Below, one piece after another: positions 2,590 to 11,316 of a stretch of 12,763 nucleotides of DNA. Under the pieces are notes generated by a model that made no database searches, was not told where the DNA came from, and saw only the letters and a list, made by a program, of their open reading frames with translations. Origin of the DNA: a virus. The translations under genes and the position numbers were made by a program. The first letter of the stretch is position 1; the number at the start of each line of letters is the position of its first letter. Where the stretch lies: the UHGV virus genome UHGV-1806816; one strand, given 5' to 3'.

Positions 2590-3561
2590 TCAGTAATGAA
2601 TTTTCGCGCAGGGGATCAGGTTATCTTTCAGAGCGGTAAGCACTTCGATAGCCTGCTCGCGGGTTAAGCTGGTTTGGCTGGTGAGCGCGTTAACGATGTT
2701 GGTGCCGACCGTCTTGCGGTGCTTAACGTCAGCTTCACGCTTTGCCTGCTCATCGGCGAGGCGCTTCTCTTCGGCCAGGCGGGCATCTTCGGCCTGTTTG
2801 GCCTTCAGGCGCTCGGCTTCAACCGCCGCGGCTTTTTCGCGTTCCGCCCGGGCTTCCGCTTCCTGCTTCTCGCGAGCTGCACGCTGTTCCGCTTCGACGC
2901 GCTGGCGCTCCGCCAGTTCAGCGCGGGCTTTCTCTTCGGCTTCACGGCGCGCTGCGGCTTCAATCTCCGCTTTGTGCTTCGCTTCGGCATCGCGGCGGGC
3001 TTGTTCTGCCGCTTCCTGTTTCAGCCGCTCATCACGTTCACGCTGAGCCTGTTCCGCCAGACGGCGCTGCTCTTCGCGGTCACGGTCAAAATCCTTGTTC
3101 ATCAGTAGAGCCATTTCGTGGTCCGCTTCGAACTTGGCAGCCAGCTCCTGATCGAACCTGATGTTCATCTCCAGCGCTTCGGCGTGCATCGCGTTCATGG
3201 CTTCTTCAGCCTTAATGCGTTCCTGCTCGGCTTCCCATTCGGTGAGTGGGCGGCGGGTCGCATCGCGCAGCTCGTCGCAGGCATCAACGAATCGCTTAAT
3301 TTCGGCCTCAGCCGGACGCACAGCCTCTTTCAGGCGCTTCAGGTACTCACGGCCCGGCTTTTCGATTGCCGTCTTGCTGCGGGACACCTGCGCTGCCAGA
3401 GAGGCAACACGGTCACGGCCTTTCTTCGTGGACAGGTCCGGCACTTCGTTTACAGCCTGGCGGATTTGCTCAAGGTACGCGTCAAGGCCGCCCGCTACGT
3501 AAAGCACTGGGGCCTGTTCCGGCTTGATTTCGATGACAGTTAAGTCCGTTACTTCGCTCAT
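2590..3561 (-). CDS. Hypothetical highly charged coiled-coil protein (323 aa) with a low-complexity Ala/Glu/Arg/Lys-rich central region
   Basis: Strong AGGAG RBS 5 nt upstream of the ATG at 3561. Globular-looking N-terminus (about 100 aa) and C-terminus (...VGTNIVNALTSQTSLTREQAIEVLTALKDNLIPCAKIHY) flank roughly 170 aa of AEQ/RERA-type heptad-like repeats. Overlapping plus-strand ORFs are artefacts of the GC-rich repetitive DNA. Confidence 0.6.
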   Translation of the reverse strand: MSEVTDLTVIEIKPEQAPVLYVAGGLDAYLEQIRQAVNEVPDLSTKKGRDRVASLAAQVSRSKTAIEKPGREYLKRLKEAVRPAEAEIKRFVDACDELRDATRRPLTEWEAEQERIKAEEAMNAMHAEALEMNIRFDQELAAKFEADHEMALLMNKDFDRDREEQRRLAEQAQRERDERLKQEAAEQARRDAEAKHKAEIEAAARREAEEKARAELAERQRVEAEQRAAREKQEAEARAEREKAAAVEAERLKAKQAEDARLAEEKRLADEQAKREADVKHRKTVGTNIVNALTSQTSLTREQAIEVLTALKDNLIPCAKIHY

Positions 3562-4096: not shown

Positions 4097-4119
4097 ATAA
4101 AAAACCCGCCGGAGCGGGT
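4097..4119 (-). terminator. Putative intrinsic terminator downstream of the 222-aa gene (tL1-like position)
   Basis: On the minus strand: stem ACCCGC / GCGGGT with a 4-nt loop (4119..4104), followed directly by TTTTTTAT. It overlaps the stop codon of the 222-aa gene. Confidence 0.5.
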
Positions 4120-4787
4120 CATTCATTCTTTGGTATGCCGCAAAGGGCGTTTAGCGTTTCAACGGGAATGGCAAGTGCGGTGCTGGTCGCTTCACGGCGT
4201 TCCACCTCAGGCAAATATGGCACTGCCTCAGGCCACATCTCAGCCAGTTTTTTAACAGTTGAGACTTTGGTTAGAGCACCTTTAACCTGCAATTGGAAGG
4301 CATCAACTTCATCGTAAAGAACGTTGATGGTTACCGTCGATTCAGTGAGTCGGTCGTGTAATTTTCCAACTTTCTTCAGCGTGCTGTAACTTTCAGGAAC
4401 GAAACCCGAATCAATTACAGGCGCGAAGGAAGCTCCGAAGAACAGGTCGCTTTCAAGATCGTGCTTACCAATATGTTTTCCACGGTGGCGATAGCGATGA
4501 TCCAAACCGTTCCTGGCTAATTCGTGATACTCACCATTAATAATGACCTTTAAAGTTGCAGTTTTAGCGCCGACCTGCATCTTGATGAAGGAGTTATCTT
4601 TGAAATCTTCCCGAGCCTTAGTTATTTGCTCATCGCTAGTGTTTTCCTGCTTGAGCAATGCCTGTCGAATTTCTTCAACAATTTTCGCCCTCTCATTAAC
4701 CGCAGCTTTCGCTTTCTCAAACAATGGGGATGCGAGAAGCAGGTTATGGCATAGCTGATTTTTAATTTCGTTGTTAAGACGAATCAT
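4119..4787 (-). CDS. Hypothetical protein (222 aa), lower-GC orphan gene; first gene downstream of the OL-like operators
   Basis: ATG at 4787 with GAGGGT 6 nt upstream. About 45% GC against 55-60% in the flanking phage genes. Contains a basic His/Arg cluster (DHRYRHRGKHIGKHD). No recognisable motif; no transmembrane segment; no Arg-rich N-terminus as in N proteins. Confidence 0.7.
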   Translation of the reverse strand: MIRLNNEIKNQLCHNLLLASPLFEKAKAAVNERAKIVEEIRQALLKQENTSDEQITKAREDFKDNSFIKMQVGAKTATLKVIINGEYHELARNGLDHRYRHRGKHIGKHDLESDLFFGASFAPVIDSGFVPESYSTLKKVGKLHDRLTESTVTINVLYDEVDAFQLQVKGALTKVSTVKKLAEMWPEAVPYLPEVERREATSTALAIPVETLNALCGIPKNE

Positions 4788-5203
4788 TGACTTACCCTCT
4801 GTCGTTACCCGCTGATGCGGGAGAAATGCTTTGGCGATGTGGTAGGTGGGAGACCCATTTCGACCCGATTCGGCCTACTTATCTTCGGCAATAGCTCCTC
4901 GGGCCTCGCCGCTTTACGTGCGACATATTCCCGTCCATGAACCCTTCACCACATCCCATAACATTCCCTGTATTGGTCAGCGCCAACTCCCTGCCAGTGT
5001 TGCCCGTTCTCACGCCGTTCTCGCTCTCGCGTGGGGATACTCTCTCACCGACCGGATCGCACCCGGTGATACAGCACGTTTACGTGTAGGGGTCTTAACA
5101 GGTCATTGACGCTGTAAATCTGCATGTTGTTAAAAAGCAGGCGACTTGCTGTCCGCCGCTGGCTAACTTCGCTCAGCTGTCGATGTTTCGTTTCGATGGG
5201 GTA

Positions 5204-5281
5204 AATTTAGCGTGATGCTAAATTATGCGCAATAGCAAAATGCTAAATTGTTGAATGGTTTTATTTAGCGTATTGATTAAT
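5204..5281. promoter_or_regulatory. OL-like operator cluster: three ATTTAGC-N5-GCTAAAT-type inverted repeats (putative pL control region)
   Basis: 5204..5224 is a perfect palindrome AATTTAGC-gtgat-GCTAAATT. Imperfect copies lie at about 5231..5249 (AATAGC-aaaat-GCTAAATT) and 5263..5281 (ATTTAGC-gtatt-GATTAAT). The same half-sites recur in the cI-cro intergenic region. Promoter hexamers could not be placed unambiguously. Confidence 0.5.
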
Positions 5282-5319
5282 AAGCGATTAAAAATTTACA
5301 GCGAAGGAATTCGGGACGT

Positions 5320-5343
5320 AAAAAAGCCCGCGCGATGGCGGGC
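5320..5343 (-). terminator. Putative intrinsic terminator of the repressor gene
   Basis: Stem GCCCGC (5326..5331) / GCGGGC (5338..5343) with a 6-nt loop; on the minus strand it is followed by TTTTTTAC. Lies 21 bp downstream of the cI stop. Confidence 0.6.
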
Positions 5344-5363
5344 TTGAGGGGTTTTGCGTGAGG

Positions 5364-6041
5364 TTATGGGATGTTTAGTATTTTGGCATCAACCACAACG
5401 CCGATGATTTTGCAGTTTCCATTAATTTCTAGCATTGGATATGCGGGGTTAAGGGGCTTTAGGAAGCGTCTGCCGGCATCGATTACAAGCTTCTTAAAGG
5501 TCGCTTCGTTATCGCCTTCTAGCTTCGCGACAACCAGCTTTCCGTTGCGCGGCTCGACTTCAGGATCAACAAGTATCGCTGCTCCCTCGGGTATGCTCAG
5601 TCCAGCCGGGGAGGTCATAGAATCCCCTTTAACGTCCAGCCAGAATGAATCTTCTGAGCAGTCAACAGTCGTGTCATACCAGCGATCTATCGCTCTTCGG
5701 TGATAAGGTTCTACAGCTTCCATCCATTGCCCCGCGCTTACCCAGCTGATTACAGGATAACTTCCTTTTGTCTCGTTCAGTCCTCGAAATGCAACGTTCG
5801 AAGGTTCTTCACTGGCGTGTAAAACATCCATCCAGCCAAAAGGCAGATCAAGCGCAGTTTCAATTTTGCGAGCCATCTTATCGCCGATATTGCGATGAGG
5901 GTTTGGTCCCAGTAGCTGGCTAAGCGCAGCCGGACTTGTCTCGATGAGCTCGGCAAACTGCGCTTTGGTCATTCCAGACTCGTGCTGACGCTTCTCGTAC
6001 AGCGCTTCCAGGTTGGCTTTTCTGATTTCTTTATTTTCCAT
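5364..6041 (-). CDS. CI-like prophage repressor: N-terminal HTH (XRE type) plus C-terminal LexA-like S24 peptidase domain
   Basis: From the ATG at 6041: MENKEIRKANLEALYEKRQHESGMTKAQFAELIETSPAALSQLL... (HTH), then ...FWLDVKGDSMTSPAGLSIPEGAAILVDPEVEPRNGKLVVAKL... (Ser/Lys dyad context of S24 autopeptidases). The ORF-track start at 6158 would run through the operator region and is rejected. Confidence 0.85.
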   Translation of the reverse strand: MENKEIRKANLEALYEKRQHESGMTKAQFAELIETSPAALSQLLGPNPHRNIGDKMARKIETALDLPFGWMDVLHASEEPSNVAFRGLNETKGSYPVISWVSAGQWMEAVEPYHRRAIDRWYDTTVDCSEDSFWLDVKGDSMTSPAGLSIPEGAAILVDPEVEPRNGKLVVAKLEGDNEATFKKLVIDAGRRFLKPLNPAYPMLEINGNCKIIGVVVDAKILNIP

Positions 6042-6058
6042 ACCTGCATTGTTACTGC

Positions 6059-6126
6059 TTTTAGCAAAATGATAAATGTGCAAATTGCTAAATGATGCTT
6101 GCGTAGTATTTAGCATAACGCTAAAC
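6059..6126. promoter_or_regulatory. OR-like operator region between divergent cI-like and cro-like genes
   Basis: Half-sites of the same motif as at OL: TTTTAGC-aaaat-GATAAAT (6059..6077), GCTAAAT (6087..6093) and ATTTAGC-ataac-GCTAAAC (6108..6126). Sits in a 116-bp divergent intergenic region. Confidence 0.55.
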
Positions 6127-6157
6127 TCCAAATCAAACGACTCACCCGGAGACACCA

Positions 6158-6391
6158 ATGAGCACTGAACTACACCGCTGGCGCAAGGCCGCCACTACCG
6201 ACGAATGGGCGCAGCTCGCAAAGTTGGCTAACACGACGCCAGGTTACCTGGACCAGATCGCCTACGGAAATCGCCGGGCATCTCCAGAAATGGCATCTGC
6301 TATCGAGAAAGGCACGAAGAATTTTCACCGCCAGGCTCCGGTCCTAAAAGAAAGCCTGGTATTCGCATCGCCGCGTGATACTGCGGCCTAA
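6158..6391 (+). CDS. Cro-like small HTH regulator (YdaS-type)
   Basis: 77-aa protein, divergent from the repressor and immediately right of the operators. HTH-like segment WAQLAKLANTTPGYLDQIAYGNRRASPEMASAIEKGT. Confidence 0.7.
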   Translation: MSTELHRWRKAATTDEWAQLAKLANTTPGYLDQIAYGNRRASPEMASAIEKGTKNFHRQAPVLKESLVFASPRDTAA

Positions 6392-6408
6392 CCACGAAAG
6401 GGAAAGCA

Positions 6409-6951
6409 ATGCATTCACTTGCGTATCAACACAATACCGGAATACACCCGGGAGCGATGATAAACCGCGCTCAAGCTAAAGCGACGCCGGACCACGAAAA
6501 GATCCGCGATGCGGTCCGTGCCTGGTCATCGGCGCTGGATAATCAGGACGTGGTGTCAGCGCTGATCATCAACGAATACCGGGAGCAGGGCGGGACCGCC
6601 ATCAGCTTTCCGGACGACATCAGCCGGGCGCGCCAGAAGCTGTTCCGCTTCCTGGATAACCGCTTCGACTCTGAGCAGTACCGCGAGAACGTGCGCCAGC
6701 TGACGCCCGCAATCATGGCCGTTTTGCCGCTGGAGTATCGCCATCGACTTCTTCCAGAGGACAGTTTTATGTCCCGCTTAGCTCGACTTGAGAAAGAAAC
6801 GAGCGAGGCGAAAGTGGCCGTTGCGATGAACGCCCCGCGTCACCAGAAGCTCAAGGAACTCAGTGAGGGGATTGTAGAGATGTTCCGTGTCGACCCGGAT
6901 CTGACCGCGCCGCTGATGGCTATGGTCACTTCGATGTTGGGGGTTATGTGA
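6409..6951 (+). CDS. CII-position regulator, YdaT-like protein (180 aa)
   Basis: Directly downstream of cro with an AAGGGAAA RBS. Position and size match YdaT-family proteins that pair with YdaS-type Cro in Rac-like prophages. Family assignment is from memory of the family, not a search. Confidence 0.5.
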   Translation: MHSLAYQHNTGIHPGAMINRAQAKATPDHEKIRDAVRAWSSALDNQDVVSALIINEYREQGGTAISFPDDISRARQKLFRFLDNRFDSEQYRENVRQLTPAIMAVLPLEYRHRLLPEDSFMSRLARLEKETSEAKVAVAMNAPRHQKLKELSEGIVEMFRVDPDLTAPLMAMVTSMLGVM

Positions 6952-7187
6952 TGGGAAGTTTCAAAAATGGCGAAAGCCAGTCTGCGCGAACAGAACTGGC
7001 CTTCAGATGCAAATCGTGTGCACTCATTGCAGGAGGAATAATGGCAAAAAATCCACGCTATTACCATACCTCTGTACATAAAAACATAACCCGCGACCGC
7101 TTCATCCGCTCGGTTAACCCGATTGTGGCAGAGAAGATGCGCGCCATCCTGGAAGAACTGAAACGTAAGGAGAGTGGCCGTGGGTAA
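6948..7187 (+). CDS. Hypothetical small protein (79 aa from GTG 6948, or 48 aa from ATG 7041)
   Basis: The GTG at 6948 overlaps the ydaT-like stop (coupling). The internal ATG at 7041 has a strong AGGAGG RBS at 7031..7036. Which start is used cannot be decided from sequence alone. Confidence 0.35.
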   Translation: MMGSFKNGESQSARTELAFRCKSCALIAGGIMAKNPRYYHTSVHKNITRDRFIRSVNPIVAEKMRAILEELKRKESGRG

Positions 7188-8079
7188 CGTATCCAATTTA
7201 GCCGAAGCCAGAGAGGCCAGAAGGCTCCAGAAACCGCGCACGAATGACGGTAAGGGGTTTGCCTTGCTGCACCGTAAAATTATGGATGTGCCGTTCTACA
7301 AGGACGCTGAGGCGGCTCATTTATGGGTTCACATGCTCCTGCGTGCTAATCACGAACAGACACTGGTATCTACTGATGTTGGCGATGTGATCTGCGAGCG
7401 CGGAGAGTTCATCACCGGGCGAAACACACTGGCAATGGAAACGGGTTTGACCGCTGATCGCGTTAAATCCCTTCTCCGTAAATTCCAGAATCTGGGCATG
7501 ATCACCACCAAATCGAACAACCGTTTTACTGTTCTAAAAGTGGTCAAATATGACGAATATCAGTCAAATTTTTGTCCAGCAGATGTCCAGCCAGCGTCCA
7601 GCCCAAACATAGTCGTACCAATGCCTGCGGAGGTGGAGTGTCCAGCCGATGTCCAGCCAGTGTCCACAGATAACAATATATTAAATAACTTACTACCTAA
7701 CGGTAGTAAGTATGTCGCAAATGACCAGAAACCCGCTGAAGAGAAAAAGTCTCGTTTGTCATGCGATGAAGTATGGCAATGCCTGAAAGACGAACTGCCT
7801 GAAGCACGGGGATGGAGATGCCTCACTGATGAGCGACGCAATCTGATCCGCACATTCTGGGGTAAGGCTAATAAGATTGCCCGCAACCTGGACGGCAAGC
7901 CGATGGATATGGACGGTTTCAGAAGCTATCTGCGTTACATCGCTCAGAACTGCCGCTGGATGCTTGAAGACCGACCAGACCAGAAGTCTGGGAAGACCTG
8001 GCGCCGCATGAAATTCGATAAGTTCCTGACCGAAAAGCTCTACATCGAAGTGCGCGAGGGGGATCGTGATGACCGCTGA
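7174..8079 (+). CDS. Replication initiation protein (lambda O / P22 gp18-like replisome organiser) carrying the origin within its coding sequence
   Basis: N-terminal region ...GFALLHRKIMDVPFYKDAEAAHLWVHMLLRANHEQ... resembles phage replisome-organiser N-domains. The middle of the gene holds direct repeats encoding CPADVQP twice, then an AT-rich stretch. The GTG at 7180 (AAGGAG 9 nt upstream) may be the true start. Followed by the DnaB-type helicase. Confidence 0.75.
   Translation: MAVGNVSNLAEAREARRLQKPRTNDGKGFALLHRKIMDVPFYKDAEAAHLWVHMLLRANHEQTLVSTDVGDVICERGEFITGRNTLAMETGLTADRVKSLLRKFQNLGMITTKSNNRFTVLKVVKYDEYQSNFCPADVQPASSPNIVVPMPAEVECPADVQPVSTDNNILNNLLPNGSKYVANDQKPAEEKKSRLSCDEVWQCLKDELPEARGWRCLTDERRNLIRTFWGKANKIARNLDGKPMDMDGFRSYLRYIAQNCRWMLEDRPDQKSGKTWRRMKFDKFLTEKLYIEVREGDRDDR
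7574..7711. other. Putative phage origin of replication: iterons, AT-rich region and inverted repeat
   Basis: At least six copies of GTCCAG(CC) at 7574..7580, 7585..7595, 7596..7603, 7640..7647, 7651..7660 and 7662..7668. Then the AT-rich gataacaatatattaaataactta, then a perfect 10-bp-arm inverted repeat ACTTACTACC-taac-GGTAGTAAGT (7688..7711). Architecture parallels ori-lambda inside gene O. Confidence 0.6.
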
Positions 8080-9502
8080 TTTCATGGCTGTACCACAAAA
8101 CCTCGAAGCAGAGCAGAGCGTTATCGGTGGCCTGCTGCTGGATGATGACAACAGCGAGCGAGTCCAGAAGGTTCTGGCGATGCTCAAGCCTGAATCGTTC
8201 TACAGCCGACCTCACCAGCTGATCTTTGCCGAGATGCGCCAGATGTTCCGCGACAACAAGCCAGTCGATGGTCTGACATTGTTCGACGCGCTCGAAGGCA
8301 AAGGGCTCGCGGAGCAGGTAGGTGGCTTTGCTTACCTGGCGGAGATCGCCAAGAACACTCCCAGCGCTGCAAACATCGTGGCATACGCTGCGTCAGTCCG
8401 GGAAGCCGCAATGGAGCGCTACGGTATCAGCCGCCTGACCGAAGCTACTGAGCTGCTGTATTCCCGCAATGGCATGAGCGCCACGCAGAAGTACGAGGCC
8501 ATTCAGGGTATTTTCACCCAGCTCGCAGACCATTCAAAAACCGGTAGTCGCCGTGGGTTGCGGTCGTTCGGCGAGGTTATGGATGACTGGGTAGCAGATC
8601 TGGAGAAACGCTTTGCCCCTTCAGGCGAACAGCGCGGCATGAGCACCGGCATCCCGTCACTCGACCGGCTGCTGGCGCCGAAAGGTCTGGTTAAAGGCTC
8701 TCTGTTCGTGATTGGCGCAAGGCCAAAGATGGGCAAGACAACCCTGTACGGTCAGATGGCGATCAACTGCGCGGTTCGTGAGAAAAAGCCAGCGCTGATG
8801 TTCAGCCTCGAAATGCCGGGCGACCAGATCCTCGAAAAACTGGTTGGTCAGAAGTCTGGAGTTAACCCGAGCATTTTTTACATGCCAGCCACGGATGACG
8901 CCGATGACCAGTACCAGGGCGATTACGACGGCGACTTTAAGAAGGCGATCGCCACCGCCGGGCGATTGAGTGAAATCGACATGCTGTACATCGACGATAC
9001 TCCTGGCCTGTCACTGGCGCACATCGTTAGCGAAAGCCGCCGAATCAAGCGCGAGAAGGGCTGCGTAGGAATGATTTTGGTTGACTACCTGACTCTGATG
9101 ACCGCCGAAAAAGCCGACCGTAATGACCTTGCCTACGGGATGATCACCAAAGGGTTGAAGAACCTCGCTAAAGAGCTTGGCTGCGTCGTCGTGCTGCTGA
9201 CCCAGCTCAACCGCGAACTGGAGAAGCGAGTGAATAAACGCCCGTTACCGAGCGATTCCCGCGACACAGGACAGATTGAGCAGGACTGCGACTACTGGGT
9301 TGGTATCCACCGGGAAGGTGCTTTCGATGACAGCGTGCCGCCGGGAGAAACCGAGTTAATCCTGCGACTCAATCGCCACGGCAGTACCGGAACGGTTTAT
9401 TGCAATCAGATCAACGGGGCAATTTACGACACAGACCAGCAGGCCGCCGCCGCAGAACGCCGCGGGCGTGAGCAGCAGCCGAAAAAGAAAGGGGGATTCT
9501 GA
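8069..9502 (+). CDS. Replicative DNA helicase, DnaB family (P22 gp12-like)
   Basis: Walker A GARPKMGKT, DnaB-like N-terminal domain (QNLEAEQSVIGGLLLD...), and C-terminal RecA-like core. ATG at 8069 with GAGGGGGA RBS; the ORF-track start at 8066 is a GTG one codon upstream. Confidence 0.9.
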   Translation: MTADFMAVPQNLEAEQSVIGGLLLDDDNSERVQKVLAMLKPESFYSRPHQLIFAEMRQMFRDNKPVDGLTLFDALEGKGLAEQVGGFAYLAEIAKNTPSAANIVAYAASVREAAMERYGISRLTEATELLYSRNGMSATQKYEAIQGIFTQLADHSKTGSRRGLRSFGEVMDDWVADLEKRFAPSGEQRGMSTGIPSLDRLLAPKGLVKGSLFVIGARPKMGKTTLYGQMAINCAVREKKPALMFSLEMPGDQILEKLVGQKSGVNPSIFYMPATDDADDQYQGDYDGDFKKAIATAGRLSEIDMLYIDDTPGLSLAHIVSESRRIKREKGCVGMILVDYLTLMTAEKADRNDLAYGMITKGLKNLAKELGCVVVLLTQLNRELEKRVNKRPLPSDSRDTGQIEQDCDYWVGIHREGAFDDSVPPGETELILRLNRHGSTGTVYCNQINGAIYDTDQQAAAAERRGREQQPKKKGGF

Positions 9503-11292: not shown

Positions 11293-11316
11293 AAGGCCCT
11301 TAGGGGCCTTTTATTC
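11293..11316 (+). terminator. Putative intrinsic terminator
   Basis: Stem AAGGCCC (11293..11299) / GGGCCTT (11304..11310) with loop TTAG, followed by TTTATT. Lies 37 bp after the stop of the DUF551-like gene. Confidence 0.6.

Follow-up and report, generated by a model that had tools for sequence, protein, structure and literature searches.

A conserved four-way-junction RNA in the phi80-type early-left leader of a lambdoid prophage without a recognisable N gene

Early antitermination is the point at which a lambdoid prophage becomes committed to lytic growth; in Shiga toxin (Stx) phages the same step leads on to toxin production. Its textbook forms are N with nut, and put. UHGV virus genome UHGV-1806816 (12,763 nt, here called the window, meaning the whole stretch of DNA that was analysed) comes from a lambdoid prophage and covers its immunity and early genes. 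In it a leader of about 410 nt (5197-4788, minus strand) lies between the left operators (OL) with the leftward promoter pL and the first early-left gene, a member of the Nmad5 family. A first-pass annotation, made from the sequence alone, had singled out this leader as unusually long and poor in open reading frames (ORFs), which is borne out, and had suggested a cis-acting RNA at the position of lambda nutL and HK022 put. A conserved structured RNA is indeed present at that position; what had been missed is that the sequence is the known leader of phage phi80, where nutL is annotated.

Three phi80 records (M11919, X13065 and JX871397) were compared with the locus. Over 422 nt, positions 4783-5204 of the window share 98.8% identity with the phi80 leader that runs from pL to N, the match ending at the -10 element of pL on one side and 5 nt inside the first ORF on the other. 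GenBank M11919, the phi80 record of 1985, marks the equivalent of 4899-5176 as 'nutL regulatory signal', and JX871397 annotates pL, a 'nutL boxA' (5139-5131) and a putative 12-nt 'nutL core' (5086-5075). The sequence itself is thus already known from phi80, where it is annotated as nutL. What we could not find described in the literature searched is a folded core of 130 nt, its wide spread without N or its independence from the protein called N; the sequences of its helix P4 and of the boxA flank do not occur in that literature. In phi80 the leader is followed by a 98-amino-acid (aa) N gene and then by terminator tL1A, while in this prophage a 222-aa Nmad5 gene fills the slot held by N, a strong terminator-like hairpin follows (4120-4103) and N is absent. 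Because the leader matches that of phi80, its length is not special to this prophage; the loss of N is.

Layout and conserved structure of the leader

The leader is a mosaic of the following parts, given in the order of transcription.

5158-5197, minus strand: M1, segment proximal to the transcription start (AUCGAAACGAAACAUCGACAGCUGAGCGAAGUUAGCCAGC)
5140-5157, minus strand: hairpin GGCGGAC-AGCAA-GUCGCC, ending directly 5' of boxA
5127-5139, minus strand: boxA (UGCUUUUUAACAA)
4980-5112, minus strand: M2, conserved four-way-junction RNA of about 130 nt, supported by covariation
4823-4968, minus strand: M3, long irregular stem-loop whose base is a helix of about 20 base pairs
4785-4821, minus strand: M4, with a hairpin CCCGC-AUCA-GCGGG (4821-4808), the Shine-Dalgarno (SD) sequence AGAGGG (4800-4795) and AUG (4787-4785)

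The M2 region, from boxA to about 4975, is kept in every homolog, and M3 in only a subset of them. M2 is built from these helices of the minus strand:

5112-5105 with 4987-4980: P0, outer helix
5102-5097 with 4995-4990: P1
5092-5089 with 5005-5002: P2
5086-5075: P3, CACG-UAAA-CGUG, boxB-like, identical in position to the phi80 'nutL core'
5069-5045: P4, nearly invariant
5034-5015: P5, CGC-GAGA-GCG with a GNRA loop, on a base of 3 base pairs with an AGAA bulge

Divergent members of the family, folded singly, gave the same architecture every time. P0 reads GCGUCAAU/GUUGGCGC in the window, GCACAUG/UAUGUGC in another group and AGCACA/UGUGCU in Edwardsiella phage Edno5; P1 occurs as CCUGUU/GGCAGG and, in Edno5, as GUAAC/GUUAC; P2 as CCC/GGG and, in another group, as CCCC/GGGG; and P3 also as CACA/UGUG, CGCA/UGCG and CGCG/UGCG. 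P4 (UCACCGG-G-UG-CGAUC-CG-G-UCGGUGA), which has CAUC/GAUG in the PA2 group, is one of two hairpins quoted in the first-pass annotation (CACCGGGTGCGATCCGGTCGGTG); the other, GGCGGAC...GTCGCC, is that at 5157-5140, and both exist as described.

Comparison of homologous leaders, a check that had been proposed, yielded compensatory pairs that support this structure. When 28 sequences were aligned with MAFFT, blind to structure, 90.1% of cells were paired, a share that fell to 34-45% when the partners were slid; 12 pairs had changed on both sides, where shuffles gave 6.2 (0/500). Once 53 sequences had been realigned to a covariance model, the paired share was 95.5% and 14 of the 37 pairs were compensatory (0/500 shuffles), with 64 compensatory cells where shuffles gave 9.7. 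The whole leader folds somewhat better than its shuffles (z-score -2.4); it is the comparison of homologs that decides the case for structure.

With the M2 covariance model 4962-5140 scores 208 bits, and no other place in the window exceeds 11 bits. It gave one match per locus in 53 loci and nothing in the phi80 rightward operon, HK022, HK639, HK97 or a 933W-type phage. Rfam had no match at gathering thresholds in the whole window, and a laxer scan of 4600-5400 returned four weak, chance-level matches only. A Trp_leader match (23 bits, 5318-5397, minus strand) was rejected because it covers the terminator that follows the repressor gene, and an AgvB match (18 bits, E = 1, 5220-5264, minus strand) because it falls on the OL operators. 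ARAGORN found no tRNA- or tmRNA-like cloverleaf. Neither a 3' terminator after the structured part nor an Rfam match at gathering score was found that would point to a free-standing small RNA (sRNA). In the literature consulted, the Pas sRNA preprint deals with the late region, the mEpimmI paper with an ordinary N/nut system and the put cryo-EM paper with put in its general features only.

The boxA at 5139-5127, about 60 nt downstream of the probable transcript start, is the sole boxA-like site in the window (consensus CGCUCUUUA / UGCUCUUUAACAA). Twelve of its 13 bases equal the boxA of the ribosomal RNA (rrn) operons, UGCUCUUUAACAA. The reference was checked: each E. coli genome holds seven copies of CACTGCTCTTTAACAATTT..., which stand some 95 nt ahead of 16S rRNA, with the rrn boxB hairpin ending one base before them. 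With 12 of 13 bases matching this verified element, the phage leader bears an rrn-type boxA. Of 58 unique upstream segments, 52 gave a boxA match, most often as TGCTTTTTAACAA (29), followed by CGCTCTTTAACAA (8), TGCTCTTTAACAA (7) and a few other forms, the exact rrn form being found in 7/58. The letters TGCTTTTT, which follow the upstream hairpin in the first-pass annotation, are this boxA (TGCTTTTTAACAA) and not the tail of a terminator. Most homologs have a hairpin there, differing in sequence and ending 0-3 nt before boxA, and one subgroup lacks it. Its stability is no better than that of shuffles (median z-score -0.4), which makes it a weak feature that statistics do not separate from chance. 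No GU-rich boxC is obvious by eye after boxA.

M3 shares 90.8% identity over 130 nt (4958-4829) with the region from nutL to the start of N in HK97, 933W-type Stx phages and HK106. Its basal helix carries compensatory double changes between the type found in the window and PA2 and the type found in HK97 and AU5Stx1. In HK97 it lies directly upstream of an arginine-rich N gene, whose start comes 18 nt after M3, and just upstream of M3 stands GCGCUGACAAAGCGC, which we take to be a P22-type boxB. The strands of the M3 base, UUUGGGGUGUG.../...CACACCACCAAAG, resemble the lambda N leader, whose stem holds an RNase III site that modulates N translation; the whole leader compared with that of lambda gave only short, non-significant matches (best BLAST E 0.23). 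From its homology to N leaders and its likeness to the base of the lambda stem, M3 is best read as a putative processing or translation-control stem of the N-leader kind, of RNase III type, kept before a gene other than N. M4 is a portable translation-initiation region, and the stretch 4833-4792 that contains its hairpin and SD recurs before unrelated genes in phi80, HK639, HK225 and KO-TP1. The PA2 group has M2 with a different sequence at the start of the first gene, as has TL-2011c, which also lacks M3.

M1 is common to phi80, HK225, KO-TP1 and HK639, and in part to Edno5. In HK639 it is 92% identical over 52 nt (3236-3185 of the HK639 locus) and is followed by the annotated putL-like RNA rather than by boxA and M2. 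The first 45 or so transcribed bases, which contain a direct repeat CAUCGA-N7-CAUCGA, are thus kept across phages that differ in repressor and in antitermination module; they might be a recombination linker or a signal in the initial transcript.

The interval is non-coding. On the minus strand of 4788-5203 the ORFs are of 26 aa from ATG (5125-5045), 44 aa from GTG (5013-4879) and 28 aa from TTG (4891-4805), the first two being reproduced from the first-pass annotation; on the plus strand a GTG-initiated ORF of 87 aa spans 4846-5109. ORF conservation was judged in homologs at least 80% identical, with frameshifts, stops and loss of the start counted as breaks. The ATG ORF is broken in 52/98, the GTG ORF in 4/11 and the 87-aa ORF in 4/12, and substitutions in the last are spread over the three codon positions as 16/14/16, so that its earlier dismissal as spurious holds. 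The best-conserved part of the leader tolerates indels of 1 and 9 nt. With ORFs broken in a third to a half of homologs and an even spread over codon positions, we conclude that no conserved small gene, which had been named as the finding that would overturn a regulatory leader, lies here.

Distribution of M2 and its relation to N genes

Loci with M2 were gathered with a 22-nt pattern from the most conserved hairpin, which is found in 9 enterobacterial genomes (Enterobacter spp., Kluyvera and Escherichia sp.) and at least 120 viral contigs. Another 39 matches, in unrelated genomes of mostly high G+C content, were chance hits and were removed by flank identity, which kept the 9 true ones. With phage records added the set comprises 139 true loci from phages of Escherichia, Shigella, Klebsiella, Enterobacter, Kluyvera and Edwardsiella, including a divergent subgroup and Edno5 (79% identity). 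M2 is also present in 221 of 5426 complete E. coli genomes, nearly always once and with no annotated feature under it; the bearers include DH5alpha (phi80 remnant) and O104:H4 and O157:H7 strains.

N homologs were sought by tblastn with five N families: phi80 N, 933W N, lambda N, and phi21 N and P22 gp24, the last two as hand-typed queries. None matched anywhere in the window, in agreement with the absence of an N-like gene noted for the interval in the first-pass annotation. Twelve of the 139 M2 loci have an N homolog, 10 of them of phi80 type, and 127 have none, among them those of TL-2011c, PA2, HK225 and KO-TP1. M2 is therefore distributed independently of N genes. The Eru1-type Stx2a phage TL-2011c bears M2 with 205.6 bits; it reportedly has no homologs of lambda N, CII and CIII, yet releases 1e7-1e8 PFU (plaque-forming units)/ml (PMC8044961). 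M2 is promoter-proximal in PA2 as well, where TTTACA-17-TATATT comes next after the terminator of the restriction gene and precedes boxA by about 70 nt.

The first ORF after the leader belongs to dozens of unrelated families as judged by naive ORF calling, the Rha type leading with about 24 loci, followed by phi80 N with 8 and Nmad5 with 4. No gene accompanies M2 at all loci, the commonest neighbours being kil (79/139) and gamL (68/139). Terminator-like hairpins follow M2 on the sense strand in 80/92 loci, compared with 45/92 on the antisense strand. As an observation apart, this first slot is hypervariable, holding Rha-type regulators, Nmad5, HNH-like proteins and many small acidic proteins, and has the look of a hot spot whose accessory or anti-defence genes are expressed first after induction.

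The phi80 protein called N (2709-3005 of the phi80 locus analysed) has no arginine-rich N-terminus and no Pfam family, and its PHROG is of unknown function. Homologs are found among the small genes of virulent Kagunavirus and in Salmonella, Erwinia, Hafnia and Vibrio phages, and neither M2 nor a long leader was found near them in the four loci tested. Since M2 is missing from the vicinity of these four homologs, phi80 N was rejected as the partner of M2; the name 'N' may not describe the role of this family.

A candidate antitermination leader and its alternatives

We lean, with a confidence little above even, towards reading the leader as a cis-acting, boxA-dependent antitermination leader of nut type, probably working without phage N. 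The rrn-type boxA on the nascent pL transcript would bring in the host factors NusB and NusE (S10), accompanied by NusA and NusG, and the folded M2 domain would hold the Nus complex on RNA polymerase or stabilise the modified elongation complex. The polymerase so modified could survive Rho over the 410-nt untranslated leader and pass the terminator at 4120-4103 into kil/gam/bet/exo. For M2 to work, host factors alone or direct contact with RNA polymerase are most likely enough; that it needs no N is suggested by its retention in many phages without a recognisable N, and the phi80 'N', where present, would be an accessory factor at most. M3, and after it the portable hairpin and SD of M4, would probably govern RNase III processing and translation of the gene in the first slot. 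Of the options listed in the first-pass annotation, the RNase III-type stem has a clear homolog in M3, the sRNA is unsupported, and RNA-based antitermination is what we infer.

It is possible, if doubtful, that boxA and M2 make up a third class of phage early antitermination beside N/nut and put, one that uses host Nus factors alone and no phage protein. Such a class would explain early-left expression in N-less lambdoid phages such as Eru1 TL-2011c, PA2 and the O104:H4 outbreak prophages.

Several observations weigh against an antitermination leader that is independent of N. The homologs are close relatives, so that several of the compensatory changes may each have arisen once and been inherited by a group. 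At 5032 the window is alone in having A, where every other homolog, including the PEC422 prophage described below, has G; this turns a G-C pair of P5 into A-C and breaks it. It may be a mutation private to this prophage, an error of sequencing or a sign that decay has begun. The boxA of the window is one base off the rrn consensus (C to U). There is no second copy of M2 in the rightward operon despite a terminator-like hairpin there, and the enrichment of terminators after M2 is modest. M2 adjoins the gene called N in phi80 and may, in that phage, depend on its product. Finally, N proteins are so diverse that an unrecognised N is possible.

If M2 were the recognition site of phi80 N, it would have been an inert linker between pL and the first gene since recombination put Nmad5 in place of N, and the leader would be an orphaned relic. 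The near identity to phi80, where N comes directly after the leader, fits such a history, as do the broken P5 pair at 5032 and the fact that homology stops exactly where the ORF starts, which a recent gene swap would produce. The N-less M2 loci, however, include those of the viable phages TL-2011c, PA2, HK225 and KO-TP1, structure-preserving double substitutions are found among N-less lineages, and phi80-type N, without an arginine-rich motif, occurs in virulent and other phages that have no M2. We regard a relic as unlikely.

The element might also serve in the 5' untranslated region in ways that have nothing to do with termination, such as mRNA stability, processing, translation of the first gene or titration of a host RNA or protein. 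Homology with N leaders makes a translational or processing role plausible for M3 and M4, and a structured 5' region can stabilise mRNA. M2, however, is kept before dozens of unrelated first genes, which makes a gene-specific translational role unlikely; boxA is a dedicated NusB/NusE site; and M2 persists where the first-gene start or M3 differs or is missing, in the PA2 group and TL-2011c. A role confined to such functions is in our judgement unlikely.

A put-like mode, in which the folded RNA binds the zinc-binding domain of the polymerase beta' subunit with neither Nus nor phage proteins and boxA is incidental, appears quite improbable. M2 does occupy the position of putL in phages without N, and HK639, which shares M1 before its put RNA, matches the put model only in the left operon of the locus examined. 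A dedicated covariance model of the three put RNAs (putL and putR of HK022 and putL of HK639) recovers them at 71-99 bits, but matches nothing in the leader, its best match in the window being one of 7.3 bits (E 5.3) outside it; BLAST with the put RNAs likewise found no match in the leader. With no similarity of sequence or structure, membership in the put family was rejected, and the put-like fold for which a search had been proposed is not present. The M2 model for its part finds nothing in HK022 and HK639, the architectures differ (a four-way junction of about 130 nt against two stems of about 70 nt), and an rrn-type boxA precedes M2 in most homologs whereas put RNAs have none. A small protein encoded in the interval, for example an N analog with a non-canonical start, is very improbable even though sense-strand ORFs of 26-44 aa are present, since each is broken in many close homologs, the best-conserved part admits the indels given above and substitutions follow base pairing and not codon position.

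The finding is in any case a conserved, unannotated RNA in the antitermination slot of many N-less phages, one that O104:H4 and O157:H7 strains also carry, and it casts doubt on whether the phi80 protein is rightly named 'N'. If M2 does act with host factors alone, phage early control would be linked to the rRNA-type Nus/boxA system, Eru1-type Stx phages would offer a concrete mutational target, and the element would be a compact, portable antitermination cassette. If a phage protein is needed after all, the result would be a well-defined structure for the phi80-type nut site.

Prophage context and comparison with known systems

The surroundings of the leader are as follows:

5205-5223, 5230-5248 and 5263-5281: operators OL1, OL2 and OL3, consensus ATTTAGC-N5-GCTAAAT
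5204-5232, minus strand: promoter pL, with -35 TTGCGC (5232-5227), a 17-nt spacer and -10 TAAATT (5209-5204)
4119-4787, minus strand: first early-left gene, 222 aa, Nmad5 family (Pfam PF18757, E 6.2e-31; PHROG 1965)
4103-4120, minus strand: intrinsic-terminator-like hairpin GACCCGC-UCCG-GCGGGUU followed by UUUUAU
minus strand: leftward genes for Nmad5, DUF1482, a 323-aa protein, GamL, Bet/RecT and an exonuclease
5364-6044, minus strand: LexA/S24-type repressor gene
6158-6391, plus strand: Cro-like gene
6409-6951: CII-like gene with a YdaT domain
7174-8079: O-like gene
8066-9502: DnaB-type helicase gene

A nearly identical prophage (99.9% identity) adjoins kch in E. coli PEC422; integrase and Q are present in it and N is not annotated. 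The operator consensus has six matches in the window, three at OL and three at the right operators (OR), with 0.47 expected by chance. These operators are the prophage's own immunity and are absent from phi80, the homology to which stops at 5204. The promoter pL was assigned by homology with the pL annotation of phi80 in JX871397 and did not score in a simple promoter scan of the window; from that annotation a transcript start near 5197 is predicted. For the repressor the ORF list gives a TTG start (264 aa, 5364-6158) and the RefSeq homolog has 250 aa. The likely start is the ATG at 6044 (MENKEIRK..., 226 aa), just past OR; the added N-terminal codons of the longer ORF cross the operators.

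The hairpin at 4103-4120 overlaps the Nmad5 ORF by two bases, since it begins with the last two of the stop codon; it matches phi80 tL1A after N in position but is a different terminator. Nmad5 stands for 'nucleotide modification associated domain 5', and the relative KO-TP1 has a queuine tRNA-ribosyltransferase-like gene in the same operon, which together hint at DNA-modification functions in these early-left operons. In the rightward operon a perfect bidirectional terminator-like hairpin, AAGGCCC-UUAG-GGGCCUU (11293-11310), follows a 212-aa ORF, and no copy of boxA or M2 was found 5' of it on the rightward strand. PA2 (5569-7988 of the locus analysed) and TL-2011c-type Stx phages carry a BsuBI/PstI-type restriction-modification pair between the repressor gene and pL, a slot that holds gene 40A in phi80 and rexAB in lambda.

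Among known systems the phi80 leader comes closest, having the same sequence including boxA, the 'core' hairpin and the whole annotated nutL region. It differs in being followed by the 98-aa N and tL1A and in its operators and repressor, and its records annotate no 130-nt junction.

The resemblance to the nut sites of lambda and P22 lies in a promoter-proximal place in the pL transcript, a boxA, a stem of RNase III type that separates the site from the first gene and a terminator after that gene. P3, which has an A-rich loop and compensatory variants, may correspond to boxB, but it stands 40 nt past boxA as one arm of a four-way junction. An arginine-rich N gene is missing from the 127 N-less loci, and there is no nutR counterpart. 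The M2 RNA stays constant while the downstream gene varies, which is the opposite of the co-variation of N and boxB. As in the lambda N leader, M3 stands between a nut-type site and the SD of the first gene, but the gene is not N and the likeness is limited to the base of the stem.

With put of HK022 and HK639 the leader shares a cis-acting structured RNA placed just after pL in a phage without N. The first transcribed bases are the same in HK639, which reportedly carries a single put copy overall. The put RNAs consist of two stems and have no boxA, and M2 is a larger junction. Action without Nus factors, and a block by mutations in the zinc-binding domain of rpoC, are characteristic of put.

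Like the rrn leaders, which have the order boxB-boxA-boxC and depend on NusA, NusB, NusE, NusG, SuhB and S4, this one has a (near-)identical boxA and a long untranslated RNA; the weak hairpin directly 5' of boxA in most copies may be a counterpart of the rrn boxB. It differs in the junction RNA after boxA and in its phage context, and the boxC seen in rrn leaders is not evident here. A boxA alone shields long untranslated CRISPR transcripts from Rho (PMC7665894). The put RNA that follows M1 in HK639, and the presumed P22-type boxB upstream of M3 in HK97, both place M2 in the slot that antitermination elements occupy in related phages.

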